From IMG/VR virus record IMGVR_UViG_3300047669_001621, positions 1-36,266 of that record: a DNA stretch of 36,266 nucleotides. One strand, given 5' to 3'. The translations under genes and the position numbers were made by a program. Each line of letters begins with the position of its first letter. Within the stretch, counting starts at the first letter, position 1. This document shows positions 4,575 through 23,243 of the stretch, in pieces. The notes under the pieces were generated by a model. The model saw nothing but the letters and a program-made list of their open reading frames with translations, did not search any database and was not told where the DNA came from. The stretch comes from a virus. Lineage: Duplodnaviria; Caudoviricetes.

Positions 4575-4580
4575 ATTTGT

Positions 4581-5242: not shown

Positions 5243-5427
5243 GTGGGCCGAAGGATCACTGGGAGCAGGTTGACGCTTTTGCCTTTGAGATACAGGAAAA
5301 GATTCACTACTACAAGGAAGAGTTTGACATACCAATGGAAAGCATGGTTGGGGTATTGGAGATGGCCAAGCATGACCTGATAAACAACTCCCCGGATATT
5401 ATATTTGAAGAAGATGACGGAGATTAA
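5239..5427 (+). CDS. Hypothetical acidic protein
   Basis: GTG at 5239 overlaps upstream TGA; plausible helical protein. Confidence 0.7.
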   Translation: MSGPKDHWEQVDAFAFEIQEKIHYYKEEFDIPMESMVGVLEMAKHDLINNSPDIIFEEDDGD

Positions 5428-5608
5428 GTGCCATAGGTTTACAGTTACCGTGACTGGCGAGAGGGAGATAAACATAAACCTTTCGGGTGAGGCATGGGAG
5501 GTCAGCTACGACAGTGGCGAGCCGGCCGGAATAATCTATCAGAAGTTCGATGGGCTGGAGGAGGCGGTTACCCATGCTCGAAAGCTCGCGGGAAGTAAAG
5601 TCGTTTAG
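5414..5608 (+). CDS. Hypothetical protein
   Basis: ATG 5414 overlaps the upstream gene end; fills the gap in the operon. Confidence 0.6.
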   Translation: MTEIKCHRFTVTVTGEREININLSGEAWEVSYDSGEPAGIIYQKFDGLEEAVTHARKLAGSKVV

Positions 5609-6377
5609 TGCGGTAGCCACCGCCCCCTGCCATAAGGAGGCTGCCCTAATGGTGTATAGCATCAGGCAGTTCTACCAATGCCCGATACTAATCATCACCG
5701 ACGAGGAGACTCAAGCCTACCTTAGGCAGTTTAATTTTGAGGACGTGGTCTGCAGGCCGGAAGCAACGAAGGATCACTTGGCCGATGCCGAAAAAGCGAT
5801 CAGCCACGTCAAGAAGCAGAATACTTTTCACAATAGGGGTGCTATATATAAAAAGATGGATGCGATTGACTGGGGAGTGTCCGACTGCGGGAACACCATG
5901 TTCCTTGACGCCGACATAACTCTCGTTAGGTCTATACATCGAAGCATAACTCACCCCGTTATGCTTTCACCGCACCACCACACGCCTAATAGGCAGAAAG
6001 AAAACCACAAGTACGGAGGGTTCAACGCCGGATATGTGTTTACGTCGGAGCCTTCCCTGGCCGACTACTGGCGCGAGATATACTTGCACCGCTCTTCCTT
6101 CTATGAGCAGCAGGGCATGGCCTTGCTGTTTGAGGACTTCGACGTAGGTAAGTTTGATAAATTCCACAACATAGGGTTCTGGAGAAACACCGACCCCCAG
6201 ATACCAGAGCTTCCGTTCAGCTTTGGACTCACCCGATCACTGCACTGCCACTTCGATAAGGCTGCATACAGAAATGCGGACGACGGGTTGAAGACGGCAT
6301 ACGACAAATGGAATTTATTTTGGCGACGACAGTTGCCACCGAAACTTAATAGCTTCATAAAGGACGTAGGGATGTGA
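5574..6377 (+). CDS. GT-A glycosyltransferase (GT8/nucleotide-diphospho-sugar transferase-like)
   Basis: MFLDADI DxD motif, GGFNAGYVF, FYEQQGM, LHCHF; GGAGGAGG SD before ATG 5574. Confidence 0.8.
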   Translation: MLESSREVKSFSAVATAPCHKEAALMVYSIRQFYQCPILIITDEETQAYLRQFNFEDVVCRPEATKDHLADAEKAISHVKKQNTFHNRGAIYKKMDAIDWGVSDCGNTMFLDADITLVRSIHRSITHPVMLSPHHHTPNRQKENHKYGGFNAGYVFTSEPSLADYWREIYLHRSSFYEQQGMALLFEDFDVGKFDKFHNIGFWRNTDPQIPELPFSFGLTRSLHCHFDKAAYRNADDGLKTAYDKWNLFWRRQLPPKLNSFIKDVGM

Positions 6378-7138
6378 ACAACGCGACATTAGTGATAGCC
6401 CAGTTTGGAAATGGCTGGCCATACCTAGACCTGTGGCTATCCACCGTAGCTAGACAAGCTATGGATGTTTTGTTTTTTACCGATCACGATTTTGATGCTC
6501 CCCCAAATGTGAAGATACACAAATGCTCTATGGATGATATATTCGATAGGGCTGAAAAAACATATGGGCTAAAGTTTCAAGCCAGATACCCATACAAGCT
6601 ATGCGACCTCAAGTCCTTCTATGGTAAACTTTTTGAGGATGAACTTAGGGACTATGAATACTGGGGGTATGGGGATTGTGATGTCGTATATGGTAAGCTT
6701 CCTGCATTTAGTGACCTTGAGCTGTACTGCGCGAAACACAAGCGTTCGGATATGGCACTCGTCGAAAGCAAAAAGCCAGTTGGTAGATGGTTCATACCCG
6801 GACATTTCGTGATGATGAGAAATGATGATCGTGGGAGAAGAATATTTGAACACCTTCCGACTGCTAAAGCCCTGCTTGAGGAAGACACGAATAACTATAT
6901 AGATGAATGGCTAGTGCCTACTGTCTTGATCCATGAATATGGGCTAGGGGCTGGAGGAATAAAGGCGCAGGACTATAGGTATATTAACCGTCGCCCGATA
7001 ACACTGAGTGACGGAGCCTTAAGTGTGGGCAGGGAAGAGCTTAACTACATTCATTGGTACACAGACAAGGACAGAGTGAAGACCCCCAAGTGGCGTGATA
7101 TACCAAGCACTTTTAATGTTAAGAATTACATGGTATAA
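6374..7138 (+). CDS. DUF6625-like putative glycosyltransferase-related protein
   Basis: QFG..WPYLDLWLST, YPYKLCDLKSFYG.LF, YEYWGYGDCDVVYG (DxD), GHF; this motif set is typical of the family found in polysaccharide loci. Confidence 0.7.
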   Translation: MNNATLVIAQFGNGWPYLDLWLSTVARQAMDVLFFTDHDFDAPPNVKIHKCSMDDIFDRAEKTYGLKFQARYPYKLCDLKSFYGKLFEDELRDYEYWGYGDCDVVYGKLPAFSDLELYCAKHKRSDMALVESKKPVGRWFIPGHFVMMRNDDRGRRIFEHLPTAKALLEEDTNNYIDEWLVPTVLIHEYGLGAGGIKAQDYRYINRRPITLSDGALSVGREELNYIHWYTDKDRVKTPKWRDIPSTFNVKNYMV

Positions 7139-7780
7139 ATGAAGCGGTTCACTATAGTTCTGAGTTGCGAGAAATATAAGAATCGCCGAGACAGGCAGGA
7201 CAAGACTCACCTTGGTGATTATAAATATTTTATCGGAGATTCAAGTTTGGTAACCAAGCCAATTTGTGACTCAAAGCCCAAAGAGGATGGGGATATCGTA
7301 TATCTTCCATGCCCAGATACCTATGAAGCTTTGGCCTCAAAGGTGGTGGGTGCGATAGAGTGGGCTTTGGAGAACAGAGAGTTTACTCATATCCTAAAAA
7401 CGGATGATGATGTTCGCGTTAATGAGAACATACTGGATTGCGATAGGGAGGCTGAAGCGCATGACTATAGCGGAATAGTATGCGAGGGTGGTGGAGGCTC
7501 TGGTTATCATCGAGGTCGATGCATGACGAATTATTACGTCAACATGAGACATGAATGGATTGGGCATGATCTGGCTTGGTGTAAGGGTGGAGCGTATTAT
7601 TTGTCTCGCAAGGCGTGTGAAATAATCGTGAACACCAAGTCCATGAGATACTGGAAGATACTTGAAGACGTAACGATTGCCGGTATACTCAAGCCCCATA
7701 AGATAACCCCGGTTCCACTTGGAGAAGGATGGTCGGTCGCGGGTAAAGGAACTTTAATATTAAAAGCGTGCAGATGGTAA
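7139..7780 (+). CDS. GT31-like (galactosyltransferase/Fringe) glycosyltransferase
   Basis: DTYEALASKV, HILKTDDDV, WCKGGAYYLSR and LEDVTIA motifs. Confidence 0.8.
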   Translation: MKRFTIVLSCEKYKNRRDRQDKTHLGDYKYFIGDSSLVTKPICDSKPKEDGDIVYLPCPDTYEALASKVVGAIEWALENREFTHILKTDDDVRVNENILDCDREAEAHDYSGIVCEGGGGSGYHRGRCMTNYYVNMRHEWIGHDLAWCKGGAYYLSRKACEIIVNTKSMRYWKILEDVTIAGILKPHKITPVPLGEGWSVAGKGTLILKACRW

Positions 7781-8316
7781 TGAAAATTATAGGAATAGGA
7801 CTACCAAGGACTGCGACAACATCATTGCATAGGGCATTTGAGATATTAGGTTATAAATCAAAACACAGTAATCACGTCATACACCCTGATGAGCAACAAT
7901 CATATAATGATTATGACTGCTTCTGTGATACGCCGTATTATTATTTATATAAAGAGATTGATAGAAAATTTCCTAATACAAAATTCATTCACACCCACAG
8001 AAGTCTTGATAATTGGTTGAATAGCTGGGAGAGGTTATACAATCAAGATGGCCCCGACTGGGTTGAGAATTGTCACTTACATAATGTAAAGTTCTTTGGT
8101 CAACGGAACTTTGATCGGCGAGTATGGACGGAAAAATATTATGAGCATCATAGTGATGTTGAAAAATATTTCAAAGACAGGGGGGCAGATTTATTAAGAA
8201 TCGACATAACGACCTGCGATGATAATTGGAAATTGATATGTGATTTTTTGAGCAAGAAAATTCCGACTGACAACTTTCCCAATATTGACCATCTCAAGGA
8301 TGAGCAATATACCTAA
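7768..8316 (+). CDS. PAPS-dependent sulfotransferase family protein
   Basis: KIIGIGLPRTATTSL 5'-PSB loop, FPNTKFIHTHR..DNWLNSW, W..ICDFL...P...FP. True start may be a few codons later. Confidence 0.85.
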   Translation: MQMVMKIIGIGLPRTATTSLHRAFEILGYKSKHSNHVIHPDEQQSYNDYDCFCDTPYYYLYKEIDRKFPNTKFIHTHRSLDNWLNSWERLYNQDGPDWVENCHLHNVKFFGQRNFDRRVWTEKYYEHHSDVEKYFKDRGADLLRIDITTCDDNWKLICDFLSKKIPTDNFPNIDHLKDEQYT

Positions 8317-8929
8317 AACAATACATTACTGTTGGTTTGGTAGGGGTAAAAAGAATTACCTTCTAAACAAATGTATAAAAACATTTAGTGATATTCATCC
8401 CGAATGGGAAATAAAAGAATGGAATGAAGATAACACGCCAATGAATCCCTATATCACAAGGGGTTTGCAAGAAAAAACTTGGGCGTCCGTTGCTGATTTT
8501 GTTCGTTTATATGCAATACATGAAGAGGGTGGCGTTTATTTGGATACAGATGTGGAAGTAGTTAAACCATTTGACAGTCTATTGAGTGACAACTTGTTCT
8601 TTGGTTTTGAATGTCGTGAGTGGATATGTAATGCCACATTAGGCGGAACTAAAGGAAATAACTTCATCAAGTTATGCATTGATACCTTCTTGAAAAAATT
8701 TGAGGAAACCCCGCCATCATTGGCATCTATATCGGGACCAGTTTTTCTCACTAATATGTTAAAAGAGCATTACGGTTTAGCGTATCATTGCAGTCCAACT
8801 GCATACCCTGATGGTATTAGGGCATATCCTGAAAAATTTTTCTATCCTTATTATTATACGGAAAAATTCACACCAGAATGTATAACCGATGACACGATCT
8901 CGATACATCATTGGGCAAAGTCATGGTAA
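8300..8929 (+). CDS. GT32 (OCH1-like) DxD glycosyltransferase
   Basis: IPKTIHYCWFG, ADFVRLYAIHEEGGVYLDTDVE, SGPVFLT, IHHWAKSW. Confidence 0.9.
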   Translation: MSNIPKTIHYCWFGRGKKNYLLNKCIKTFSDIHPEWEIKEWNEDNTPMNPYITRGLQEKTWASVADFVRLYAIHEEGGVYLDTDVEVVKPFDSLLSDNLFFGFECREWICNATLGGTKGNNFIKLCIDTFLKKFEETPPSLASISGPVFLTNMLKEHYGLAYHCSPTAYPDGIRAYPEKFFYPYYYTEKFTPECITDDTISIHHWAKSW

Positions 8930-8937
8930 AACGTGAG

Positions 8938-9075
8938 TCATCGGACTAACAACGGCTTCCCATTAAGTGATCGCCATGTCCGGGCTTCGAGCTTCTCCCT
9001 CAACTCTTTAGCAAGTGGTGTCTCCACCCATTTTATGGCTGACTTAACCTTCTTCTTTCTTGTTTTTTTTGTCAT
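8938..9075 (-). CDS. 45-aa basic peptide, not in ORF track
   Basis: MTKKTRKKKVKSAIKWVETPLAKELREKLEARTWRSLNGKPLLVR; AAGGA just upstream. Confidence 0.4.
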   Translation of the reverse strand: MTKKTRKKKVKSAIKWVETPLAKELREKLEARTWRSLNGKPLLVR

Positions 9076-9163
9076 GGTCCTTGGTTACGGATGCCCCATG
9101 CCGGGGCTTGGAAGGGTTGTAATAGATTAACGTGATTTGAAGTGAAGCGAACACCACAAAAAA

Positions 9164-9268
9164 ATGACTGAAGAGATACTACTGGAAATAAAAGAGGAGC
9201 TTGCCGCCATGAACCACCACCTGAATGAGTTGGTTAAGGCGGTCATCAAGTTAGCTGAAAAAAAATAA
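9164..9268 (+). CDS. 34-aa coiled-coil peptide, not in ORF track
   Basis: MTEEILLEIKEELAAMNHHLNELVKAVIKLAEKK; clean heptad pattern; followed at once by a hairpin. Confidence 0.5.
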   Translation: MTEEILLEIKEELAAMNHHLNELVKAVIKLAEKK

Positions 9269-9300
9269 CACCCCCCGCAAGGGGGATGCTAACAACAAAG
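9269..9300. terminator. GC hairpin between convergent units
   Basis: CCCCC-GCAA-GGGGG stem-loop (9272-9285); A-run on the left gives a U-tract on the - strand. Confidence 0.6.
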
Positions 9301-9337
9301 CAAACCATGTAGTTAGACTACACGGTTCAGGTTGTGT

Positions 9338-9652
9338 TCAATCTTCATCCCATGCCAGCTTCTCCCCCGCCTTGAGCGGTGTGCTTTCAGGTACCCTATC
9401 CCAAGCTTGATCCACGTACTGCATGATCCACGTCCCCGTCTTGAGCGAAGCCTTAACTGCCTCGCGCTTCCCCTCGGCGGTGACGTCATCGAAGTCCGCA
9501 AAGGCTTGGTCGTCGTTAAGCATATCCCTAAACCCGTTCACGGTTTCATTTAAGAGATACATGGCCCGCGACTTACCTAGCGTTAAGCCCATGGCGACGG
9601 CCTCTATGTCTTTGTCCTGTATTTTATTTCCCTTTTTATTTTTCTTAGGCAT
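9338..9652 (-). CDS. Hypothetical protein (104 aa)
   Basis: ATG 9652 (MPKKNKK) overlaps the recombinase stop by 8 nt. Confidence 0.7.
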   Translation of the reverse strand: MPKKNKKGNKIQDKDIEAVAMGLTLGKSRAMYLLNETVNGFRDMLNDDQAFADFDDVTAEGKREAVKASLKTGTWIMQYVDQAWDRVPESTPLKAGEKLAWDED

Positions 9653-10544
9653 GATTATATATTTCAGTTGTTCCTGTTGATGTGTGTGCCACAAGCTTCC
9701 CTATGTCCTCCAACCCAACGCCAGCGGCCTTGAGCCTCGTGACGAATGAATGCCTTAAGCAATGAAATGATAATACCCTTCCATTGATCGTCGGGATTTT
9801 CTTAAGCATTCTCTTATAGTACTGGGGGAGATAGGATCGGGTGGATGGAGTTGATATAAGTCTCCGTTCTTCGGGCCACACATAGTCGGGGTCGTCCCCG
9901 AAGTCCAGACCATTGAACAGCTTAACCAATTCACCTCCTCCCAACATGTCGTGATCTACGGGCAAGGCAACCCTGGCATGCTGCTTATCTCCTGCCTTCG
10001 CCGTCCATACCACGAGGTGGTTGGGGACGGAGACGATGCTGTCCCACTCAAGGGACGCGCAGTCGGACAGCCTTAGCCCGGTGTAGTATGACAAGGTGGT
10101 CGCGAACTTGAAGAACTCAAGGTACGTCGGCGGCACGGGGGCCTTATGCAGAACATCAATGCCCTGACACGTAAGCTTGTACTCTTCGAGGGAGAACGGT
10201 TTCTTCTTCTTCGGCTCCTTCTGCTTGAGTGTTAGGTTTTTCATATTAACTCTAAGCTTTGCGGCTACATTCCCTTTGCAATGCCCCCTATCTTTGGCGA
10301 GGCTAAGGAATGAATTGACTGCCGACAGTCGGAACCTCCGCTGCCCCAGTCCCACCCCGTCTTCCGCATTGATATAGCAGCTCACCATCTCCGGCGTCAC
10401 GTCATTGAGGTCAATGGATTTCTTTGGCAGATACTTCTCGATCCACATATTGATGGCGCTGTTCTGGGAGGCCACCGTGTTCGCCGCCCGATTCTCCAAT
10501 GCCCAGTGAGTGTACTCGCAGGTCAAAAACTTCCAAGGTGTCAT
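9645..10544 (-). CDS. Tyrosine recombinase/integrase
   Basis: Full catalytic set: YTGLRLSD (R), TAKAG (K), FHCLRH (HxxR), VAHTS (H), EIYNH (Y); 299 aa. Confidence 0.93.
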   Translation of the reverse strand: MTPWKFLTCEYTHWALENRAANTVASQNSAINMWIEKYLPKKSIDLNDVTPEMVSCYINAEDGVGLGQRRFRLSAVNSFLSLAKDRGHCKGNVAAKLRVNMKNLTLKQKEPKKKKPFSLEEYKLTCQGIDVLHKAPVPPTYLEFFKFATTLSYYTGLRLSDCASLEWDSIVSVPNHLVVWTAKAGDKQHARVALPVDHDMLGGGELVKLFNGLDFGDDPDYVWPEERRLISTPSTRSYLPQYYKRMLKKIPTINGRVLSFHCLRHSFVTRLKAAGVGLEDIGKLVAHTSTGTTEIYNHA

Positions 10545-10810
10545 GCGAATTTTACGTCCGACACTTTGCCGACGCCGATGAGCCTACTCAGAACGCCTTC
10601 ATCCTTAGGTAGGTCTTTGTTTACACAAATCAATTGAGGTATAGCGGTGACTCCGTAGAGCGTGGCCGACTGCTGTCCGTCGCCCGTAGTTATATCCACT
10701 ACCTCAAGTTCTTTCTTATGCTTCACCGCCACCTTCTCGGCGACGGGTAGCATAACCTCACAAGCGCCGCACCATGTGGCTGTGAAATACATTATTGCTG
10801 TTTTGCTCAT
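10541..10810 (-). CDS. Thioredoxin-like protein
   Basis: YFTATWCGAC active site, VDI, YGVTAIPQLI cis-Pro motif. Confidence 0.9.
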   Translation of the reverse strand: MSKTAIMYFTATWCGACEVMLPVAEKVAVKHKKELEVVDITTGDGQQSATLYGVTAIPQLICVNKDLPKDEGVLSRLIGVGKVSDVKFA

Positions 10811-13332
10811 TATAATTTTGTTGGATTTTGGTTAGTTTCTTTCATCACTCCCGCAAGCGTGTTCCACTCAAGCTCACAAGATGACTCTGGTCTGGACTCA
10901 CCGTTCTCATCAAAGTTAATGATGTGGTCGGCTAGTATCTCCGATGCCTCCATTTGTTTATAGTCCCTATCAACCCGCTTGCCATGGAGACATAGCGTTG
11001 CGGCGTCCTGCTTAGTGGCAACCCTGTCGAAGATAGCCTCCTCGATTGTGTTCTCAAAAAGAATCACATGAATGTTGCATTCCTTCGGGGAATTCAGTCG
11101 ATGAACCCTTCCGAGTGCCTGATACAGGGAGCCGTATCCCCAGTCGAGCGATGCAACTATAAGGTTAGGGCAGTTCTCAAAGCTATAAGCCTGCGCGCAA
11201 TTGATACCCATTAGCAATATGGGGAATTCTTTTTTCTTGAACTGCGACGCCTGCATTGCGTGCTTCCCTCTCGTGCTGTCGATCCGCCCATACCTAATGC
11301 CGGCTTGATTTATTCTGCTCGCTATCTCATTGCCCTGCCCTGTCCTTGAGTATACCACGACGGTCTGCTCACCCTTGTCGATGTTCTCGTTGAGCATTTG
11401 CAGTATGGTTATGATCTTTGGATTGAAGTTGGATGTGCATATCTCCGAGTCCTCCTCCCTTAGCCCCGCGAACGTATCCCTTGGCGATGCACATATGGAA
11501 CGCAGTGCGTTGGTTTGCCGAAGGGCTGCCGTAAGCATGGCCCTCTGCTTCTCCTTCTTCTCCCTCTTGGGTAAATCTTTCGGTATAAATACCTTCCTGT
11601 TGAGGTACTTGGCGTACAACTGCATCTGCTCTTGCCCCATTGGCACCCTCACATCCTGCACATTGCACTTCACTAGGTCTGGGTTGCACTCCTCCTTACT
11701 AATGTAACCAAGGATTGGCTTTATAAGTTTAAGTAGCCTAGTCGGTGAAGAGATTACGGCAGAGTTAGAGCGTATCCTTCCACTCCAGTTGGGGTCCTCG
11801 CTTCTCCTTCTCCGCTCTTCAGTGGAGTCATACTCGACGGACATGAACTGATGCTCGAACGACCCGTACTCCGAGATAGCGTAGGGGAATGCGGCGTTCC
11901 GCTTGCCTCCCTTGTACCAATCCCGCACCGCAAGCCACCCAAGGATGGGGAAGATGTTGGTTATCTGGTTAGGAATAGGGGTAGCCGAGAGTGTATATCT
12001 AAACTCTGGCTGAAGCCTAAGTAACGCCCTAGTCTGCATTGACTTGAGTGACCTCATAAGGTGGGCTTCGTCTATGATTATCATATCAAACTGCGAGCCA
12101 CACAAGGTGGACAAGCTTGGCTTAGCTACGCAGACTATACCGTTCGCATCACATTCACCCAAGCCAAGGTGGTAAAGTCGATCACCCTCGCGATGCTTCT
12201 TCCTTATGGCGAGTCGCTTCCTGAACTGCTCTTCGCGCTTCACTGCATTCGCCTTCCTCCATGTTCCGGGAGCGTACTCCATTGCGTCATTCTTGAGAAA
12301 GGCAGACGGGTATGTGATGTATATCCCCGGAGGAAACACACCGTCCTCTCCCTCTGAGCGTGCCTTGTCGTAGTCCGACCGATTGAATAGCGTGCGAACA
12401 GGGTAGTACGGGCAGAACTTTTGTATCTCAGCTACCCACTGGGCTGGATCAAAGTTCCGCTTGTCTCCCATCTCATTCTCCACCGTACCCTTAGGGGCCA
12501 TGATCAGAATACGCTCAGCTTTCGCAAGCCAAGCTAGGGTCAATGCCCCAAGCGTCTTGCCTGTACCTACGTCGGCAGCAATACATCCATACTTCTTTAT
12601 GCCCATCCTTGCGTAGTAGTCCAGCTGTCCAGGGAAGTAAGTGAATCCAGACATGGCCTCGAATGCACGCATCTCCTCGATGTTGCTGTCATACTTTTCC
12701 TCACTGACCTCCCTGATCGTGTCAACATCCGGACGCTTGAAGTGTTCCCATAACTCCGCCTCTTGGTGTTGGTTGTCATGCGGCCCGGGCCTGTCCCTGA
12801 AGAAGTGGTACTCGTTGTTGTCGTCCACTATCCTTATGAATCTATCCACTCCTGTGAGTTCGCAAGTGTGTTCCGTTACTCGCATAGTCCCACTGTCCTC
12901 ATCATAGTAAGGCTTCTTCCTTGTGAACTTCTCAGTGAATGGAGTTGACCCCGTCCGAATGTCATAACCTCGCCCCGGAGTGAGGTTAAGTGACGACCCA
13001 TCCACGCACTCAAGCTTGCCCATCTCATCCGCATAAGCCACAAGTTCTTGATCCGTTGGCGGCCTAAGGGGTGCATTAAACTCATCCCCCTGCACCAGTG
13101 ATGCCACGATTGCTTCCTTCGCAAGTGGCTCAATTTGCACCTCACCCTCACTGCTCAACAGCAGGATGTCCCGCATCCCCTGCCTGCTTGCGGCTTCAGT
13201 TAGCAATGCGACAGGCGTCTCATCCCTCAGCTTTCTGAGCGTGTTAAGATGCTGCCACCTATTCAACGCCGACAGCCTACCCTCTGACACCGCAAGGGTG
13301 CCGTCCTTCCTGATTGATAAATCGTAACTCAT
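10810..13332 (-). CDS. SNF2-family SF2 helicase/translocase with N-terminal extension
   Basis: ADVGTGKT (I), IIIDEAH (II), LSATPIPN (III), NPKI, QALGRVHRL (VI), TIEEAI. Confidence 0.9.
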   Translation of the reverse strand: MSYDLSIRKDGTLAVSEGRLSALNRWQHLNTLRKLRDETPVALLTEAASRQGMRDILLLSSEGEVQIEPLAKEAIVASLVQGDEFNAPLRPPTDQELVAYADEMGKLECVDGSSLNLTPGRGYDIRTGSTPFTEKFTRKKPYYDEDSGTMRVTEHTCELTGVDRFIRIVDDNNEYHFFRDRPGPHDNQHQEAELWEHFKRPDVDTIREVSEEKYDSNIEEMRAFEAMSGFTYFPGQLDYYARMGIKKYGCIAADVGTGKTLGALTLAWLAKAERILIMAPKGTVENEMGDKRNFDPAQWVAEIQKFCPYYPVRTLFNRSDYDKARSEGEDGVFPPGIYITYPSAFLKNDAMEYAPGTWRKANAVKREEQFRKRLAIRKKHREGDRLYHLGLGECDANGIVCVAKPSLSTLCGSQFDMIIIDEAHLMRSLKSMQTRALLRLQPEFRYTLSATPIPNQITNIFPILGWLAVRDWYKGGKRNAAFPYAISEYGSFEHQFMSVEYDSTEERRRRSEDPNWSGRIRSNSAVISSPTRLLKLIKPILGYISKEECNPDLVKCNVQDVRVPMGQEQMQLYAKYLNRKVFIPKDLPKREKKEKQRAMLTAALRQTNALRSICASPRDTFAGLREEDSEICTSNFNPKIITILQMLNENIDKGEQTVVVYSRTGQGNEIASRINQAGIRYGRIDSTRGKHAMQASQFKKKEFPILLMGINCAQAYSFENCPNLIVASLDWGYGSLYQALGRVHRLNSPKECNIHVILFENTIEEAIFDRVATKQDAATLCLHGKRVDRDYKQMEASEILADHIINFDENGESRPESSCELEWNTLAGVMKETNQNPTKL

Positions 13333-13691
13333 TTATATCCTTTGTTGTACTCATCCCAGTTTTCCCCAAGGGCCTCGAAGCCCATGCCCCATATGTCATG
13401 GAGCAGGTGAACATACTCATCATAACCGTTCACCTCCTGCGCCTTGCTCTTGAAATTGCTATAGTCAAGCGTATCTACGATCTTGCTCATCCACTGATCG
13501 AACACATGGCGTGGAAGAATTGTCCTGTATTTGTAATCCCTATCCGGGGTAACCATAATGGGGTGTGTTGAACTCACTCTCTCCATAAGAAGAGTTAGGT
13601 GTTTCTTTTTTCTAGCTCTAACCTGAATCTTGTCAGCGTCCAGAGATGACTGGGTTGTGCTGAAGAAACCTTCTGGCGTTAGTATCCACAT
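13329..13691 (-). CDS. Conserved-looking phage hypothetical protein
   Basis: MWILT..GFFS, QVRAR, DY.YR, LDYSNFK pattern recalled from a widespread uncharacterised family; ATGA-coupled to SNF2. Confidence 0.75.
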   Translation of the reverse strand: MWILTPEGFFSTTQSSLDADKIQVRARKKKHLTLLMERVSSTHPIMVTPDRDYKYRTILPRHVFDQWMSKIVDTLDYSNFKSKAQEVNGYDEYVHLLHDIWGMGFEALGENWDEYNKGYK

Positions 13692-13692
13692 G

Positions 13693-14334
13693 TTACCCTT
13701 CCTCCCATCTGTGCTTGGTCCAGCTATGCGCCTTCCTCTCCGCGCCTACCAGTTGTGTGGGGTACTTTGATCCTGCGTCTACGCCAACCCATCCCTCATA
13801 GAACTCGGCATCCCATTCCTTGTTCATTCTCTGGGCGACACCATCCCAGTACTTAGCCTCCACCTTGTCCTCGAAGTTGAATATAGTAGGTACGTATACG
13901 TGATTGTCCTTAGGTTTTTCATCTACCTTGTGTACGCTTGGCAGTAACACCCTTAGTACGGACTGCCTATCCTCATACCTCCCCGGTATTGACGGCATGT
14001 CCAGTACTATCAAGGTTCCCCTACCTATGCCGTGCCTCCTCGACAGTCCCTCGCAATCAAGCCACTCGGAAAACGAGTCGGCAACTGGAGTCAGCTGCCT
14101 TCTTATCAGCGACAAGGCGTCGGTAAACTCATGCTCTATCGACAAGCGTTCGAGCTGTCTGTTATACATAACCCCAGTCACCGTGTTGAGGAACACTCGC
14201 CACCCGTTGTACTTCGGCGTGAATATAGTATTACGTTTGTCCGTCATCTCCCACACCTTACCCAAGGGCTTGCCCCCGGTGGTGGGGCGAGCGGGATAGG
14301 TGGGGGGGAAGGTGTCAATGGTCGCGGTGTTCAT
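13693..14334 (-). CDS. ATP-dependent ligase-like nucleotidyltransferase (adenylation domain only, 213 aa)
   Basis: Motif I TPKYNGWR, Ia YNRQ, III WLDCEG, IIIa LIVLDM, IV YEGWV, V WTKHR. Start taken as ATG 14334. Confidence 0.75.
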   Translation of the reverse strand: MNTATIDTFPPTYPARPTTGGKPLGKVWEMTDKRNTIFTPKYNGWRVFLNTVTGVMYNRQLERLSIEHEFTDALSLIRRQLTPVADSFSEWLDCEGLSRRHGIGRGTLIVLDMPSIPGRYEDRQSVLRVLLPSVHKVDEKPKDNHVYVPTIFNFEDKVEAKYWDGVAQRMNKEWDAEFYEGWVGVDAGSKYPTQLVGAERKAHSWTKHRWEEG

Positions 14335-14653
14335 GTTTTCGTTCAGCTTCAGCTTCTTCGCCAAGCTTCTTATCGTAGTTAAGTATCTCTCCCATGCCCT
14401 CGTCGTTGTAGTGGTCCTCAATCGCCTGACGGACAAGCGCTTCATCGGGTGGGTTCATTAGTATTTCAGTGGTGACAGACTCAATGACCACATCACTTAT
14501 GTCGATGGTGGGGCCAGGGTCATGCGTTAGGTTGACCTGCTCTCCGTAGTCATAGGAGAAGGAGTTGTCCTGCACGTCATACTCAATCAACCCCTCAACC
14601 TCATGCAACTCTCCGCCCTCATCCTCGTACTCGAACTCGAACGGGTATGTCAT
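14315..14653 (-). CDS. Acidic hypothetical protein
   Basis: ATGA-coupled; very Asp/Glu-rich. Confidence 0.75.
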   Translation of the reverse strand: MTYPFEFEYEDEGGELHEVEGLIEYDVQDNSFSYDYGEQVNLTHDPGPTIDISDVVIESVTTEILMNPPDEALVRQAIEDHYNDEGMGEILNYDKKLGEEAEAERKHEHRDH

Positions 14654-15270
14654 CGTACTATTACAGACACGGGCATGTGCTGATTAACTTGTAGGTTTTG
14701 CCTCGGCGTGAGCATCTCATACCTTCCGGCGGTGAACACGGGGGTAAACTTAAGAACCTTCCGAAGGTTATGAGCTTGGTGGTACTTATTAAGCACCGCT
14801 ATCATGTCCATGAGAAACTCATTCCTGATCGACGCCGGTATCTCTGCGGTGTCCATCTTGATTTCCACATGCTCCTCGAAGCACTTGTCATACTTGCTTT
14901 TCGTCGTGTCCTTTAGCACCCTCACCTTAGCCTCACCCTCGGGCAGGGTTTGTGTTCCGTCTTGGAGTACGCACCTTGTCCAGTTGTTATTATGATACAC
15001 GGTAACTCTATCCTGATTGCTCGACCCCATTGCCCTGAAAGTTTTGGAGGCTTCCGCAACCCCCGCATTTCTGTTAAACAATTCCTCAAGGTATGCCTCC
15101 TTGATCTCCGCTTCGGGCGGAGCCTTGAGCTGTTGCCCCTCTTTTTCTATGCCCTTGCCTTGGCAAAATGCATCGACCCTCTCTGCTGCTATCGTGTTGA
15201 GCAGTGGTTTGTCCTGCTTACCCTTGACGGGCTTCTTGCCCCCGCCACCCTCTAATTTAGTTAAGTCCAT
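14650..15270 (-). CDS. Hypothetical protein (206 aa)
   Basis: AGGA upstream of ATG; coupled within the operon. Confidence 0.8.
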   Translation of the reverse strand: MDLTKLEGGGGKKPVKGKQDKPLLNTIAAERVDAFCQGKGIEKEGQQLKAPPEAEIKEAYLEELFNRNAGVAEASKTFRAMGSSNQDRVTVYHNNNWTRCVLQDGTQTLPEGEAKVRVLKDTTKSKYDKCFEEHVEIKMDTAEIPASIRNEFLMDMIAVLNKYHQAHNLRKVLKFTPVFTAGRYEMLTPRQNLQVNQHMPVSVIVR

Positions 15271-15484
15271 ATGTATCCTGTGCCTCCGTCTGATTGTTTG
15301 GTTTGTCGTTTGTAATATAATCTTCCTCTTCGAGGTATCCCTTCATGGAATCACACATATCCCATTCACTTGCGGCAAAGTGTGCCGCCTTCCCGTCACC
15401 CCTTATGGCGATCTTAGGATAGAAAACTTTTCCTATCCTAAGGAACCACTTGAACAGCCATGGCCCAAATATTTTGAAGATCAT
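15257..15484 (-). CDS. Hypothetical protein
   Basis: ATG 15484 (MIFKIFGPW) in ATGA overlap with the upstream stop. Confidence 0.6.
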   Translation of the reverse strand: MIFKIFGPWLFKWFLRIGKVFYPKIAIRGDGKAAHFAASEWDMCDSMKGYLEEEDYITNDKPNNQTEAQDTYGLN

Positions 15485-16398
15485 TCTTCTAATTCGACCA
15501 AGCCTCGAGTCTTCAGCATGTCCAGTATGAAGTCCGCCGACGAGGCGACGGTCGCCCAAGGTTTCAAGTCATCCCCTCCATGTATCCTGTCGAAGACAAA
15601 GTCTCCATCAGTAGCCCCCACTATAGAGCAAGGAACCCCATATCCCCCGGAGTAGTCATCCGTTTCCTCTTGTTCTTTTGCCGCAAAGACAAGCCTCCTA
15701 AGGATGGATGGGTGAATGATCATAAAGGAACAACGATCCCCATCCAAGTGTTCGTCCGATCTCTTGACCGGAATCTCATACTGATTGATGGTGCCGTCGT
15801 TCTCCGTAGTGGACATGAGCGTCAGCTCAACCGAGTACCCGCAGTTGCTTAGTGCCTCAAGCAATCCGACTACGGCGGCACCCCGATGAATGAACACCTC
15901 CTTCTCAACAGAACAACTGACCGCGACATTGACCAAGACCCTAACGATCTTACCCCCCATACCCTCGGTGTCCTCTGGCTGAAACTCAATCCAGTGTTCG
16001 GGGTCTCCCTCCACGAATGCCCCTATGTCTATTTCATCCCCGCTATCTGCGTACCGTGGATGGTATGCCTTTATCTTGGATGCCACTATCCTGTTCATCT
16101 TTTTACGTACCTCCTCCACATGGCCAAGCCCCTCCGGCCACCCATCGGCAGCCAGCTCTTGGCACTCTTCATATGAACGGGTGCCAGCCCAACCATCATC
16201 CCCTTCCTTCCTGCGTGAATGCTTTTCGGTGGGTCTTTCGGAGAAGTAATCAACTAAGTCCGGCTGATTCTCACAGAACTCTAGGAAATCCTTGAAGTCC
16301 TTCGATGACCTGCGTACCAACTGGTATTCCTCACCATCTCTCTCGAGATTAGTGACCTCTCTTCGACACTGCTCGTGTCCTGCTTTGTAAAATGCCAT
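15481..16398 (-). CDS. vWA-like partner of MoxR-type ATPase
   Basis: GDEIDIGAFVEGDPEHW, VRVLVNVAVSCS (degenerate MIDAS), RGAAV..L.EAL...GYSVEL, HPSILRR, GYGVP. Confidence 0.65.
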   Translation of the reverse strand: MAFYKAGHEQCRREVTNLERDGEEYQLVRRSSKDFKDFLEFCENQPDLVDYFSERPTEKHSRRKEGDDGWAGTRSYEECQELAADGWPEGLGHVEEVRKKMNRIVASKIKAYHPRYADSGDEIDIGAFVEGDPEHWIEFQPEDTEGMGGKIVRVLVNVAVSCSVEKEVFIHRGAAVVGLLEALSNCGYSVELTLMSTTENDGTINQYEIPVKRSDEHLDGDRCSFMIIHPSILRRLVFAAKEQEETDDYSGGYGVPCSIVGATDGDFVFDRIHGGDDLKPWATVASSADFILDMLKTRGLVELEE

Positions 16399-16402
16399 TG
16401 TT

Positions 16403-17014
16403 TTAATTAAATAATTTGAATAATTGCTCCATCTCAGCGGGGGTATACTTCGTCTGTTTTCTCATACGGGATACGTCGCCCCTTGCTAAGGTCTTCAGTA
16501 CACTATTAGCGTCCACCCTCGTGACGCCATACGACCTTGTTATTGTTATCATAAATGATACCTCTAGCGGCTCAGCCTCCACCTGCACGGTGAACCCGTC
16601 CACCTCCAGCCCCCATAGAGCCATCTCTTTGGGCTTATACTTACCGAACGGAACGTGGCACACTTGCGCTAGTGAATACATATCGGCATGTGTAACAACA
16701 TTCTCTTCGGCCGTAACTTCCTCGATGCTAAGGATGTCCACGCTTGGAAAGTATGACCAATCATCTGATTGCTCTTCCCAGTCCGGCCTTACGTCCCGCA
16801 CTCCATGCTTGGGTGGCTCGCATACGCTTTGATACCCTTCGGCCCATTGCTCAGCTTCACTGGCGAGGTCGCTCTCGAAGGACTTCATATCAATCTCCTT
16901 CCCCTTCCCTTTCTTTGGTACCTCGTCGTCGTCTACGGTATATATCACAGTCCCGTCACACTCCGCCGTGGCGTGGTATCTTACTTGAAACTGTCGCTGT
17001 TTCTTATTCTTCAT
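16403..17014 (-). CDS. Hypothetical protein (203 aa)
   Basis: Long ORF filling the space between the AAA and vWA-like genes. Confidence 0.75.
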   Translation of the reverse strand: MKNKKQRQFQVRYHATAECDGTVIYTVDDDEVPKKGKGKEIDMKSFESDLASEAEQWAEGYQSVCEPPKHGVRDVRPDWEEQSDDWSYFPSVDILSIEEVTAEENVVTHADMYSLAQVCHVPFGKYKPKEMALWGLEVDGFTVQVEAEPLEVSFMITITRSYGVTRVDANSVLKTLARGDVSRMRKQTKYTPAEMEQLFKLFN

Positions 17015-17016
17015 GT

Positions 17017-18432
17017 TTATATATTTGATTCGTTAACAATCTTAGCGCGAGTGGCGGAATCCATTCCCTTCCATACGCACATATTCGATACGTGAGTGAA
17101 CCCAAGGCCAGCTCTCAGTAGCTTTATGCCATTGATGCTTGCCCTTGGTGAGACCACATGCCTAACGGCAAGCGAGTCTACCGCATTACGAATGCGTCCG
17201 ACCCACTCAACCCACTCCTGGTCTGTCCGTCCATTCCCCGCATCTAGCTTAATCTCCGCGCCATCCCTTTCGACGCCGCATATTTTCCCCTCCCACTTCT
17301 CGTCATAGTCATACTCGACAACGGCAAACCTATCTATGGTTGCCGCATCCAGTTGATTTCTTCCCACATAAGTAGCGTTAGCACCCAAGCCATACGTGTT
17401 GGCAAGGAAGAGAGGGACAAAGTTCTCATGCCTTGGGGTCATCCCGTCCTGTCCGGGGAAGTGGCTCTCGGCATTGGCGAACCCTTGATTGAGTAACGTC
17501 AATGATCCAGCTGAGCCTGCGTCCGCCTCATCACAAGCATAGAGCATACCCTTACTGAAGCACTGGTAAAATACCGACTCTATGTACCTGCCATTGGCAT
17601 CCATGTACCCAAGGATGTCCGACTTGGAGGTCTGAGGCCCAATGGATTGGATGCGATAGTCAACGCTGTTGTCCTCCCACGCCTCCTCACACACCTCGGC
17701 TAGTGCCTTGATGGTGGATGTCTTGCCCCACCCGGCGGGACCAACGATCATGGTTGGTATCCTGTTGGTTACGGCTGCTGCAACAAGGGGAAACTTATAG
17801 TGCAGGGGTTGGTCGCCTTCCCATTTCTTGCCAGCGGGAAGGATGTTTATGTCGAACGACTGGAAACTTCCACCGCTTGGGCCATGGATGTTATCGTCAG
17901 TCATGTGCGACTTGATCTGCGTCCAGCACTTCTCAATTAGATTTTCTTGGTCGGCCAGCTTATCCGACAGCCTAGTAATAACCTTCCCGTGATCATGGCT
18001 GTTCGCACTGGCAAGGCTAGCAAACCCTTCCTTCATTATACGCAACACTTCCATTGCGCTATCGGCCTCAGCCTCCTTGGCTACATCCTCAATGCGAACC
18101 TCGGGGCCTTCGTATTTGATTTCTTCGGGCAACTCTTCGGGCAACTTCTCTTCTATGGGAAGATTAACCTCTTCGTGTTCACCCGGAACAAAGGGATGGC
18201 TTATGTTATCATGCCACTTAAACTTAAGGCTCCCATCTTGGATGACCTTAATCCATTGCTTAAAGTTTTCGGCTGCCAGTTCCTCATTGCCCTCCTCGGA
18301 CTTGTATTCATTGAGGTTTGCATAGCCCTTTTCCTTGAGCCACTCGTTAAATATTTCCTTGGTCGTTGAGGAGGCAGAGCCTAATGCTCTTGCCAGCTCC
18401 ACGAATTCTTTAATTAGTAATGTCTGTACCAT
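17017..18432 (-). CDS. MoxR/CobS-like AAA+ ATPase with acidic N-terminal extension
   Basis: Walker A GPAGWGKT, Walker B YACDEAD, ANTYGLGA..YVGRNQLDAATIDRF, VSPRA sensor 2. Confidence 0.9.
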   Translation of the reverse strand: MVQTLLIKEFVELARALGSASSTTKEIFNEWLKEKGYANLNEYKSEEGNEELAAENFKQWIKVIQDGSLKFKWHDNISHPFVPGEHEEVNLPIEEKLPEELPEEIKYEGPEVRIEDVAKEAEADSAMEVLRIMKEGFASLASANSHDHGKVITRLSDKLADQENLIEKCWTQIKSHMTDDNIHGPSGGSFQSFDINILPAGKKWEGDQPLHYKFPLVAAAVTNRIPTMIVGPAGWGKTSTIKALAEVCEEAWEDNSVDYRIQSIGPQTSKSDILGYMDANGRYIESVFYQCFSKGMLYACDEADAGSAGSLTLLNQGFANAESHFPGQDGMTPRHENFVPLFLANTYGLGANATYVGRNQLDAATIDRFAVVEYDYDEKWEGKICGVERDGAEIKLDAGNGRTDQEWVEWVGRIRNAVDSLAVRHVVSPRASINGIKLLRAGLGFTHVSNMCVWKGMDSATRAKIVNESNI

Positions 18433-18683
18433 CAGCGTATACGGTTATCCCTTCTCCTGTTTTTCGTATTAGTATTTTGTTTCCATTCAAGCACATCCTC
18501 GTCACCTCGGGTATAAGGGCTGGAGGTATCCCCAACTCCAGGAACCTCGCAAGCAAGCTGTTCACTAGCTCTACTTTCATATTCAATTATCGCATTCTCC
18601 TTTATGATATACTCACGGAGCATGTCGCTCGTCATCGCCATCTCGAACGGCAAGTCCATCAACTCGTGTGCCATGGGCTTCAA
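18432..18683 (-). CDS. Hypothetical protein
   Basis: Stop overlaps the AAA start (TGATG); start uncertain. Confidence 0.55.
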   Translation of the reverse strand: MKPMAHELMDLPFEMAMTSDMLREYIIKENAIIEYESRASEQLACEVPGVGDTSSPYTRGDEDVLEWKQNTNTKNRRRDNRIR

Positions 18684-18846
18684 TTATTTTTCCTATTGTA
18701 AATGTTAAGTGTATGATCGCCGTCATGTATTGCTGTGACTTCATTTGGTAATCCTTTTCCCTGCCCGAGTCGTTGACCATCTTAAATCTGCCGTGAACTT
18801 CCTTCACCGCACGCTTTAGTTCCTTAATTATCTTCTTCTTCTTCAT
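18613..18846 (-). CDS. Basic hypothetical protein
   Basis: ATG 4 nt after upstream stop; same operon. Confidence 0.6.
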   Translation of the reverse strand: MKKKKIIKELKRAVKEVHGRFKMVNDSGREKDYQMKSQQYMTAIIHLTFTIGKIIEAHGTRVDGLAVRDGDDERHAP

Positions 18847-18849
18847 GGT

Positions 18850-19167
18850 TTACTTATGATCTTCCTCTTCTTCATCGAATGCGGACATGGGGTCTAGGCT
18901 GGGGTTAGGGCAACGCTCTATCATGTGCATCGTGGGTGACTGTACGCCTATGTCTTTCAGAAAGACACAAGCCCCTTCCCACTTATTCTCCTGTAGTAGT
19001 AGCTCCACTGCATTGGATTCTTTTTCCGATAGGTCTACGGTATAGTACGCCGCCGACCTCTGTGGATTCGACGCCGCCCTTATTTCATAGAAGCCACTGC
19101 GACCCTCCGACGCTAGATGAAATGACTCGACTCCGTGACAGTCCATTATTCCGTGATACCTACTCAC
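18850..19167 (-). CDS. Hypothetical protein
   Basis: 8-nt overlap with upstream gene; G..DCHGVESF motif. Confidence 0.7.
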   Translation of the reverse strand: MSRYHGIMDCHGVESFHLASEGRSGFYEIRAASNPQRSAAYYTVDLSEKESNAVELLLQENKWEGACVFLKDIGVQSPTMHMIERCPNPSLDPMSAFDEEEEDHK

Positions 19168-19648
19168 AGGTAGTTCCCTTGGTTAGCCCGGTGACTTTGA
19201 GCAGTCTCTCCAGTTTTGATACCGCCTTAGCTATCTGCGTGTCAGTACCGCCCAACATGATAGCTCGTTCCGCCTCTTCATGCACTGCATTGATCTTCTC
19301 CGACTGCTTGCGTTGCCTAGGTAATGCCTTCTTGTGTGCCTTCACCGCCTCCTTGTATGACACCGGGGTCTCAATAAACCTCTCCTCTATCTCTATGGTG
19401 GTGCCATACATATGGTGTCCGTAACGCCGACCGTTACCGAGTGCCGCTTCCTTCATCCGCAACCGGCACGCTTGCTTGATCTTACTCATCGCCACGTACA
19501 CTGCCGACCCATCCAATACAGCATCCTGCTTGTGCGACAGGATGCAAGGCTCGCTTGATACCTCTACCTTCTCCAGTGCCTTAGCCCTGAACTCATTTAT
19601 CAGGTCTATTGCATACTTTTTACTCGTGTGTGTGTTTCGTTGACTCAT
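19160..19648 (-). CDS. Hypothetical protein
   Basis: AAGGAG upstream; coiled-coil C-terminal half. Confidence 0.7.
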   Translation of the reverse strand: MSQRNTHTSKKYAIDLINEFRAKALEKVEVSSEPCILSHKQDAVLDGSAVYVAMSKIKQACRLRMKEAALGNGRRYGHHMYGTTIEIEERFIETPVSYKEAVKAHKKALPRQRKQSEKINAVHEEAERAIMLGGTDTQIAKAVSKLERLLKVTGLTKGTTCE

Positions 19649-19865
19649 TATTTTCAAACTCCTTTACTTCAGTTATGTCCAGCCTAAGATCAGCGATCTT
19701 AGCTCGAACCTTTATTAAAATCTTATCTATTACCCAGCATTTGTAGAACTCTTCGGAGGGGTGACGCCCACCCATGTGTCGTCGCCGTCTCGTAGAGAGC
19801 CACCCCGCCACGTTTTCGTAAGCGTCGGCGTCAGCTATCAGTTGCAATGAACTCTTTTCCTTCAT
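19620..19865 (-). CDS. Hypothetical protein
   Basis: Overlap-coupled ORF in the - strand operon. Confidence 0.6.
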   Translation of the reverse strand: MKEKSSLQLIADADAYENVAGWLSTRRRRHMGGRHPSEEFYKCWVIDKILIKVRAKIADLRLDITEVKEFENNESTKHTHE

Positions 19866-21699: not shown

Positions 21700-21702
21700 G
21701 TA

Positions 21703-22455
21703 AAATTTAATTAGCCGTGGATGATAGGCCTCAAGGTCGTTACCCTATGATTCGCACTATTTCATGGTGATACCAACATTCTCACCAACTCATCATTCCA
21801 GTTCTTTTTACAACGAACTTGCCACACGGCTAATAAAATGAAATGTTCCGAGTTACTGCTCGGGCAGACTCCTTGTGGTTAGAGCTTTTTTCATAGCATT
21901 ATTAGATATGTATGTATACAAAGTATACATTGAAAAATATAGGCGTTGCCCCCTTCTCTCGCAACGTCTAGTGGTAACCTCCCGTATAACATGTTACCCC
22001 CTTAAATTGATGCACTATACTGGTTATACCATAGTGGCTGTCCCCTATGCCTACCTTGAACTGACGACAGGTGATAAGCCTCATATAAATCGTTCGTCGC
22101 AGTCGGGACTCCGAGTTACTTTACCTAAGCAACAAAGGCTAATGTCATTAGCTTATCCAATGCGTTCGCAACTCTTCAATCTTCTGCCCAATACATTACT
22201 GCATCGTTAGCCTTGATTGACATGAGAATGTCAACCCCGTTGGACGGGTTGGTAAGGGCAAGCATGAATGCCAGCATTGCGCGAACTGTCGAGACCTATA
22301 CACTGGGGTTCAATCCTTCCTAATCCCTTTTGCCGATTGCTCAGCTTGGTGTTACCAAACACCAATGAAATGTTCCTGCTTACCCAACCCCCATCATAGG
22401 GTGCGGGCTTTACGGTCTTGCACCGACGGTTGGCAGGGCAACCACTCCTTTCTTC
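21703..22455 (-). ncRNA. Candidate large structured non-coding RNA or array of small RNAs (~750 nt)
   Basis: No - strand ORF >=60 aa; more than a dozen stems; G-U wobbles and a GCAA tetraloop work only on the - strand; repeated motif with compensatory changes. Confidence 0.55.
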
Positions 22456-22458
22456 GAC

Positions 22459-22743
22459 TTAACAGCCGACGTAAAACAACTTACGAACACCACCATTCGG
22501 CATCCGATGAGCCACTATTCTGTCCCAGCGACCCTCAGTTTCCTCATCTCTCACCAGTAACTCTGGCTTAACCCTATTCTTAGGGTGACCAACATAGTAC
22601 TGATCCTCGGCATCCTTCATCAGTCGCTTCACCGTTATAGGTGACAACCCAGCCTTCTCGCTTGGACTAGCCGGCTCATGTTGAGCAAACTTAATCCGAT
22701 TCAAGTAAGCCAACGGCTTCCAGTCTTCCTTTGATATATCCAT
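22459..22743 (-). CDS. Hypothetical protein (94 aa)
   Basis: GAGGA SD before ATG 22743 (MDISKEDW); the longer track ORF runs through a terminator. Confidence 0.7.
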   Translation of the reverse strand: MDISKEDWKPLAYLNRIKFAQHEPASPSEKAGLSPITVKRLMKDAEDQYYVGHPKNRVKPELLVRDEETEGRWDRIVAHRMPNGGVRKLFYVGC

Positions 22744-22768
22744 AATGTAATCCTCTGTTGTCGTATTG

Positions 22769-22808
22769 AAAAAAAGAGATAAGGGGAGACTGGCGAACCA
22801 GTCCCCCC
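22769..22808 (-). terminator. Intrinsic terminator-like hairpin
   Basis: - strand GGGGGACTGG-TTCG-CCAGTCTCC then TTATCTCTTTTTTT. Confidence 0.7.
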
Positions 22809-22829: not shown

Positions 22830-23243
22830 TCAACCCATCAGTCCTGACAAGAACCCTCCTCCACCGACTGCCGTAGCCTTCGGTGTCGCCGCCTTAGCCT
22901 CACATACTTGTGCCTTTCCCTCAGCGGTGATGGTGACAGCTCGTGCCTCCAGTTCTGCAAGGGACAGGTAGTATGACCGACTACGGCGAGACCCTCGAAA
23001 GCCTTGACTCTGCAGCCAAGACCGAAAGCCTTGCACCATGGGAGTGTCCATGCCATCCTTGTAGGCAAACTCCGTAAGCAATTTCTTGCCCACTTTAGCC
23101 AACTGCTGTTCAACGTTCCATTCGAGCAAGCCTTTACCCCCAAGGTCGTTGAGCAGGCTCAGCAACCCTTCACCCTTGAGTAGGGGAGCATCGTTAATCT
23201 TGCGGTCATTCACGCTGTTGTTAGCAAACGGTTCCATCGTCAT
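22830..23243 (-). CDS. Hypothetical protein, first gene of the leftward early-type operon
   Basis: GGAGG SD 10 nt before ATG; followed by a terminator. Confidence 0.75.
   Translation of the reverse strand: MTMEPFANNSVNDRKINDAPLLKGEGLLSLLNDLGGKGLLEWNVEQQLAKVGKKLLTEFAYKDGMDTPMVQGFRSWLQSQGFRGSRRSRSYYLSLAELEARAVTITAEGKAQVCEAKAATPKATAVGGGGFLSGLMG

Follow-up and report, generated by a model that had tools for sequence, protein, structure and literature searches.

A covarying pseudoknot-like RNA element with a uridine-rich tail at the boundaries of phage non-coding modules

A motif that occurs twice in a gene-poor stretch of phage DNA, with changed stem letters and unchanged pairing, raises the question of what it marks and what might read it. 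The window analysed here, i.e., the whole stretch of 36,266 nucleotides, is a 36.3-kb phage fragment with integrase, terminase, DnaB and Sak genes, and the runs containing its sequence are seawater, marine or aquatic metagenomes. The repeat lies between minus-strand open reading frames (ORFs) ending at 22459 and starting at 21699. The upstream ORF (22459..22743, minus strand, 94 aa) gave no match in a Pfam and PHROG search, and its stop codon stands 13 nt before the first stem of copy A. Further upstream lies a 137-aa gene (22830..23243, minus strand) with a terminator-like hairpin (22810-22781, minus strand), which is taken as the canonical terminator used by this phage.

The region has no match in cultured phages, the terminase is at most 29% identical, no host could be assigned by comparison of DnaB, and locus searches with single proteins returned nothing usable. 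The 137-aa gene served as the anchor for the orthologous region, and an alignment of its homologues retrieved relatives from 10 metagenome and 4 viral loci. Six distinct loci reach the region (L013, L014, L015/16, L017, L020 and L021); L018, L019/L026, L022 and L025 end before the site and are excluded from the positional count given below, and L016, L023, L024 and L027-L030, which duplicate or nearly duplicate L015, were counted once with it. The sequences G001, G002 and G003 were also used. In G001, a giant ORF of about 5658 aa occupies 2796-19772 (minus strand), the first 4900 residues of which have no Pfam or PHROG match, and a sulfotransferase and glycosyltransferase cluster (69800-72400; 9811-12394 in L038) adjoins a pyrimidine-dimer glycosylase.

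Architecture of the repeat

The original prediction described two minus-strand copies (copy A, 22450-22364; copy B, 21874-21837) with shared flanks, an identical 13-nt segment and a 5-bp stem; all are present in the sequence, and the three two-sided changes claimed for the stem are confirmed. As a whole architecture, the repeat is real and beyond chance. The 13-nt identity alone is within chance, as the window holds 7 exact 13-mer repeats within 600 nt and at least one arose in 26 of 100 block shuffles; in mononucleotide shuffles, 0.3 such repeats are expected window-wide. AAGGAGU and GUAA, identical in the two copies, are not kept in relatives, and the shared AAGGAGU and 13-mer most likely reflect a local duplication, like the near-identical copies in L015 and L021.

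Judging from stem pairing that covaries, the minus strand of the repeat forms an H-type RNA pseudoknot to which a U-rich tail is attached in fixed register. Its parts are a first stem (S1), a loop of 1-2 nt (L1), a second stem (S2), a variable loop (L3) and the tail A-N-N-(A/C)-U-U-U directly 3′ of S2, and what all copies share in their pairing is an S1 hairpin with a loop that also base-pairs further downstream, forming S2. The assignment to the H-type rests on this loop pairing and on covariation in both stems, and it is weak in copy B and has a nested rival in copy A. The structure first drawn was a single stem with a domain inserted at its tip in copy A; the 5-bp stem is real and corresponds to S2, but the inserted domain is not the conserved form. 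In copy A, CAACC can pair with GGUUG just upstream (S1), which makes the stem first noticed S2 of a pseudoknot. In L017, the closest relative, the upstream GGUUG, CCUGC, CAACC, GCAGG and tail of copy A are all present, and the downstream GGUUG that had originally been paired is missing; the common pairing is therefore taken to be that of the S1 hairpin loop in S2.

The copy A pseudoknot (22375..22445, minus strand) comprises the 5′ strand of S1 (22445-22439), L1 (22438), the 5′ strand of S2 (22437-22433), the 3′ strand of S1 (22432-22426), a variable L3 of 46 nt (22425-22380) and the 3′ strand of S2 (22379-22375). Its tail, AACAUUU (22368..22374), fits the RNase E consensus RN/WUU and is a candidate cut site. 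Copy B is minimal (21848..21867, minus strand), with an S1 of 3 bp (21867-21865/21858-21856), whose CUG/CAG is the counterpart of S1 in copy A, an L1 at 21864, the L3 UAA and an S2 of 5 bp (21863-21859/21852-21848), and its tail AACAUUU (21841..21847) is followed by more U-rich linker. In copy A, the nested fold has a calculated energy of -28.9 kcal/mol. S1 and S2, at -22.5 plus -6.8 with no pseudoknot penalty applied, are about as stable, so the nested fold may compete with the pseudoknot and the element may switch between the two. In copy B, where the S1 hairpin amounts to -0.5 kcal/mol and the S2 hairpin to -6.2, the short S1 may leave the element acting as a plain hairpin.

A strain represented by one contig of depth 4.45 (X10) has all its indels and two of its three substitutions within the copy A element in L3, and the third substitution changes a G-U pair to A-U at 22445. 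In the same contig, copy B and RNA3, the module behind it, are jointly replaced by 101 other bases (joint 21700-21910). Loop 3 of copy A (22400-22420) also forms an inverted repeat (76%) with a hairpin in the 137-aa gene (23017-23037).

Two partial echoes of the motif had been reported at 22110-22120 and 22247-22261. Both exist in the sequence; they belong to the conserved RNA that separates copy A from copy B and do not represent further copies. The minus strand at 22247-22257 could pair with 22380-22390, the 3′ end of loop 3 in copy A (about 10 pairs with one bulge), possibly as a precursor-only fold, and this pairing is not clearly seen in relatives.

We infer that the array RNA is the minus strand from its GNRA loops, its G-U pairs and the direction of the genes. 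A plus-strand reading, first suggested by extra G-U pairs, was dropped: 5 of the 6 copies of RNA1 (the module behind copy A) have varying GNRA tetraloops on the minus strand, the G-U pairs of S1 fit that strand and the genes run that way. The exception is a hairpin within loop 3 of copy A, for which the plus strand gives the better pairing. A tandem period of about 262 nt was also rejected, with alignments returning only 11-20 nt matches, as was a readthrough or frameshift signal, no downstream frame being apparent by eye.

Copies, null models and covariation

Further copies were looked for in related phages, and 11 more distinct ones were found in six related contigs, giving 13 distinct copies in seven contigs with several unrelated stem sequences. 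The search rule demands an S1 of at least 3 bp, an L1 of 1-2 nt, an S2 of 4-7 Watson-Crick pairs, an L3 of up to about 80 nt and the tail. In the window it finds exactly copies A and B (2 of 84 minus-strand tails, and 0 of 85 on the plus strand). Between 21700 and 22460, where the rule matches twice, 1500 dinucleotide shuffles gave 0.0013 matches on average and never two; for the whole window the figure is 0.04 per shuffled strand (25 shuffles). This null is optimistic, as the rule was tuned after the relatives had been seen and requires both pairs and tail.

Covariation was counted on the eight short copies, the five long ones being misaligned by MAFFT. In a sequence-only MAFFT alignment of these eight, all 81 of 81 cells pair and 9 of 11 pairs show two-sided changes; none of 500 shuffles reaches the observed pairing and slid controls pair in 33-55%. 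The shuffle controls overstate the case, as the copies were selected by a rule requiring the pairs, and kinship among the copies inflates the counts. Two less circular checks agree. In one, the site is defined by position: past the ORF that lies behind the 137-aa gene, a pseudoknot of this kind comes first in 7/7 contigs reaching there (the window, L013, L014, L015/16, L017, L020 and L021).

Tails with a pseudoknot on the sense strand number 3 of 251 in G001 and 3 of 202 in G002, all inside the array; G001 has one more match outside the array, on the other strand (1 of 241 tails), L021 has one on its opposite strand, and G003, which ends just before the site, has none among 217 tails. In the other check, made with the tail rule removed, the tail still accompanies 11 of the 16 strict pseudoknots of the array regions (in one case only if S2 is shifted by 1 nt), the background per position being 0.2-0.3%; genome-wide the fraction is 1/7 in the window and 3/14 in G001. 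Across the 13 copies, 10 have 11-12 pairs, loop 3 ranges from 3 to 52 nt, four non-U bases always separate S2 from the U-run, and no core base outside the tail is invariant.

Twelve viral matches to the shared 13-mer plus UUAC look like chance and share no protein-level similarity with the window; the only GTDB pattern match (L031) reads as coding sequence and was likewise taken as chance. Other exact-pattern scans returned nothing or only G001 and G002 again. Literature searches aimed at the motif found no description, and supplementary motif tables may hold one. As it escapes sequence and covariance-model searches, the motif may be more widespread than these seven contigs.

An array of structured modules

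All six relatives carry an array of conserved, gene-free modules in the orthologous region, and the pseudoknots appear to stand where a gene gives way to the next unit. Nine of the 13 copies begin -8 to +13 nt from a stop codon and the others at 23, 35, 48 and 92 nt, the 23-nt case being copy B, behind a doubtful 33-aa ORF. Non-coding modules follow 11 copies and the leader of a protein gene follows two; the units are RNA1 (six, two of them after extra hairpins), a 135-nt module (one), RNA3 (one), another 400-nt module (three) and gene leaders (two). Modules that follow another RNA are preceded only by a U-rich linker or a second boundary element, with no such pseudoknot. If the pseudoknot thus marks gene-to-unit junctions, its job is suggested to lie at the end of the upstream mRNA, with the U-rich strand as a general separator.

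RNA1 (21972..22366, minus strand, ends approximate) is a conserved, structured non-coding RNA, about 400 nt long, whose start follows directly on the tail of copy A. It has homologues in L013, L014 (partial), L015/L016, L020 and L021, and 31 of its 103 predicted pairs show two-sided change among five sequences. Its first hairpin loop can pair with a strand about 100 nt further on (UGGUA/UACCA in the window, UGGUG/CACCA in L014), possibly forming a second pseudoknot. Contigs of the DNA runs X7 and X10 match 36 bases at 22330-22365 with 6 differences and then diverge, which may be chance or a distant carrier of the 5′ hairpins of RNA1.

RNA1 is followed by the second boundary element (21933..21966, minus strand), a hairpin with a purine-rich loop and then a U-tract (UUUAC/UUUUUC), found at the same place in the window, L013, L015, L016, L020 and L021; its loop and U-tract, read by eye, may pair as another type of pseudoknot. 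RNA3 (21712..21832, minus strand, about 120 nt) starts 9 nt after the tail of copy B and is closed by a terminal 8-bp helix. It is 84.6% identical to L015/L016 over 143 columns, and 2 of its 33 pairs show two-sided change (four sequences, alignment and fold). Counterparts lie at 7429-7560 in L015 and 2870-2960 in L021, with the 8-bp helix invariant and an optional internal hairpin absent in L021.

Other modules of the relatives are absent from the window: a conserved one of about 135 nt followed by a U-run (L015 6605-6720, L017 1875-2005, L021 1705-1825), and a highly conserved one of about 400 nt (L015 7025-7420, L020 2100-2500, L021 2295-2695) that shares the short motifs GGGUAAC and AGUGCGAA with RNA3. 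Further helix-closed modules occur in one or two relatives only (L021 1830-1930 and 2700-2865; L013 1710-1800; L020 1390-1450). A small basic ORF of 35-37 aa (L015 6884-6990, L020 1955-2065, L021 2124-2237), preceded by a conserved hairpin, ends where a pseudoknot copy begins or shortly upstream of it. A hairpin of similar kind is present in the window (21912-21931), together with only a 13-codon frame (21893-21852) running into copy B. Short direct repeats of the AUGAC/AUAAC-AGC type precede an A/T-rich stretch in L013 (2365-2410), L015 (6755-6790), L017 (2045-2065) and L021 (1995-2030), possibly an operator and promoter inside the array.

Searches of Rfam gave no relevant match for the window (E up to 1), for 21700-22800 (E up to 10), for the six relatives (E up to 5) or for G001 and G003 (gathering score); these negatives cover small ribozymes, riboswitches, tmRNA, GOLLD and ROOL, with covariance models seeing pseudoknots poorly. 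ARAGORN found no tmRNA in the window or 13 loci, and no tRNA genes were found in the window or in G001-G003. A tmRNA identity for RNA1 was rejected on the ARAGORN result and on a tag-like frame (22209-22176) that lies off the conserved columns, and the tmRNA-like or T-loop-like look of 22306-22327 on ARAGORN and alignment evidence.

RNA evidence comes from six metatranscriptomes, whose contigs show neither strand, end nor level and in whose libraries DNA can occur. A contig within 22001-22356, inside RNA1, is present in five of them, each from a different study; it is the deepest placed piece in four runs (marginally so in X15, 10 versus 9.9) and the only piece in X18. Three contig ends fall at 22001/22002, two at 22328 and two at 22355/22356, the last within a near-palindromic hairpin, where assembly or reverse transcription may have halted. 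Neither tail is spanned by an RNA contig, a DNA contig runs through the tail of copy A, and in the sixth run, X17, a 151-nt RNA piece (22384-22534) lies on the other side of that tail. Together these observations are a weak hint that RNA1 is a separate stable RNA. RNA3 and copy B are covered in none of the six runs, which is not proof of silence.

Predicted function and known systems

We infer from these sequence features that the element, which is real, covarying and uncatalogued, punctuates an array of equally uncatalogued phage RNAs. The original prediction had regarded it as a structure-selected recognition or processing element, a reading borne out by the covariation across relatives and the position at gene/RNA boundaries, if not by the structure drawn for it. 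A more specific proposal, to which we would give about an even chance, is that pseudoknot and tail form a processing signal, with the cut in the tail and the pseudoknot capping the 3′ end of the upstream mRNA. The phage would transcribe genes and RNA modules as one message, which would be cut in the tail by an endonuclease acting on single strands, with host RNase E or a similar enzyme as the most likely candidate. The downstream module, beginning with its own helix, would be freed as a stable RNA, and the pseudoknot would remain on the upstream mRNA, giving it a structured 3′ end that protects against 3′ exonucleases, and would keep terminating ribosomes off the downstream module.

RNase E sites are described as A/U-rich single strands with structure before them (PMC4619774); their core is RN/WUU, and cutting at them frees small RNAs that were part of longer transcripts (PMC5222698). 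In 13/13 copies a structured segment immediately precedes an A/U-rich site, partly by construction of the rule; RN/WUU matches exactly in seven of the 13 tails (both window tails and five others) and not in the other six. RNase Y is guided by structure a few bases downstream (PMC11321564); the first helices of the modules could also guide it, so that RNase E and RNase Y are both candidates.

A bolder reading, which we consider unlikely, is that this phage lineage uses a portable, sequence-independent pseudoknot as tRNA-free punctuation, imitating the geometry of a pre-tRNA 3′ end so that host nucleases would excise swappable RNAs. If true, the processing signal would be new and would open a way into an undescribed family of phage RNA machines, with one excised RNA among the phage transcripts most readily recovered from seawater. 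The processing proposal itself would explain how phages lacking tRNA genes cut several large non-coding RNAs from one early transcript. The motif also gives testable boundaries for the array RNAs, which are needed to make and study them, and bacterial RNA engineering could make use of so compact and sequence-flexible an element that both cuts and protects.

Several other explanations have to be weighed against processing in the tail. The pseudoknot might instead stay on the downstream RNA as a 5′ shield against RNase E scanning or a 5′-to-3′ exonuclease, with the tail as a spacer. According to PMC9943677, H-type pseudoknots of 8-15 coaxial pairs impede RNase E scanning in proportion to their length, a range that includes the 11-12 pairs of 10 of the 13 copies, but with 11 pairs the hindrance is modest. 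Contigs ending behind the tail could likewise be explained by reverse transcription stopping at S2. The fixed A...UUU register would be unexplained, uridine-rich sequence placed after such a barrier would encourage cutting, modules behind other RNAs have no pseudoknot, and plain frameshift pseudoknots do not stall Xrn1 (PMC10321173), so that such a shield seems distinctly unlikely.

It is more doubtful still that the element is a binding site for a phage or host protein, read by shape and tail, such as a gp32-like operator, an antitermination site or a decoy. The pseudoknot of T4 gene 32, with its A+U-rich 3′ stretch, is a gp32 nucleation site (PMC3014915), the leader behind two copies has a Shine-Dalgarno-like sequence, and the small basic ORF ending at or just before a copy is encoded in three relatives. 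A gene 32-type operator would place the pseudoknot before the start codon of its own binder, but the non-coding modules behind 11 of the 13 copies offer no start codon to regulate, and a Pfam cut-off scan of 41 of the 51 G001 ORFs of at least 110 aa found no RNA-binding or ribonuclease family.

We regard as quite improbable an uncut folding insulator, ribosome roadblock or weak non-canonical terminator that separates translation from the folding of the next RNA: the position of 9/13 copies at or just behind a stop codon and the U-tracts 3′ of S2 agree with it, but the four non-U bases before every U-run differ from the canonical terminator at 22810-22781, and RNA1 appears as a separate piece in five runs. 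Cutting by the host tRNA-processing machinery of a mimic of the pre-tRNA acceptor half (by RNase Z, or by RNase E as after CCA) is very improbable. The number of stacked pairs and the layout, with an A at +1 in all copies (as the rule demands) for a discriminator, three bases and a U-rich trailer, recall a pre-tRNA, and RNase E is described as cutting 1-3 nt behind CCA in polycistronic tRNA transcripts (PMC2190699). No T-loop equivalent is present, however, and the RCCA that RNase P needs on a pseudoknot substrate of this tRNA-like kind (PMC12710915) immediately follows the pseudoknot in 0/13 copies. A self-cleaving ribozyme or the originally proposed ssDNA hairpin promoter is scarcely credible: the repetition at unit boundaries and the giant G001 ORF without assigned function could be cited in favour, but 4900 of the 5658 residues of that ORF match nothing in Pfam or PHROG, the absence of an invariant core base and of any Rfam ribozyme match speaks against the former, and the RNA-like topology and G-U pairs, with stems that share no loop sequence, against the latter.

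Among known systems, RNase E sites would be the nearest parallel in function, on the processing reading, and the T4 gene 32 pseudoknot is the nearest in appearance. In phage T7 early RNA, the intercistronic RNase III sites are long hairpins cut within the helix. Both the T7 sites and, as proposed, the motif are repeated RNA structures punctuating a polycistronic phage transcript (early in T7), the motif being a compact pseudoknot with a single-stranded tail. Coremin/xrRNA-C elements (PMC10520033, PMC10321173) resemble the short copies in a short hairpin, a 6-nt loop, an A-rich spacer of 8-10 nt and a putative pseudoknot; in contrast, the loop of the motif forms 4-7 Watson-Crick pairs, its loop 3 spans 3 to 52 nt, and the coremin loop consensus YGAD or YGNNAD occurs in 0/13 copies. 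The array RNAs share with GOLLD and ROOL (PMC12286853) that they are large structured phage RNAs, clustered and of unassigned function, and differ in having no Rfam match, in the size of RNA1 (about 400 nt) and in the lack of tRNA genes in the sequences searched.

The likeness to RNase E sites lies in structure followed by an unpaired uridine tail and in their use to release stable small RNAs (PMC4619774, PMC5222698); what differs is a conserved pseudoknot upstream, a fixed 4-nt spacing and repetition as a cassette, with a predicted cut and a candidate enzyme. The T4/T2 gene 32 leader (PMC3014915) is likewise a phage H-type pseudoknot with two stacked stems and an A+U-rich single strand near an RNase E site, but it is a single-copy translational operator cut by RNase E 5′ of the pseudoknot, whereas the motif described here occurs in multiple copies with unrelated stems, stands mostly before non-coding RNAs and has its candidate cut on the 3′ side.
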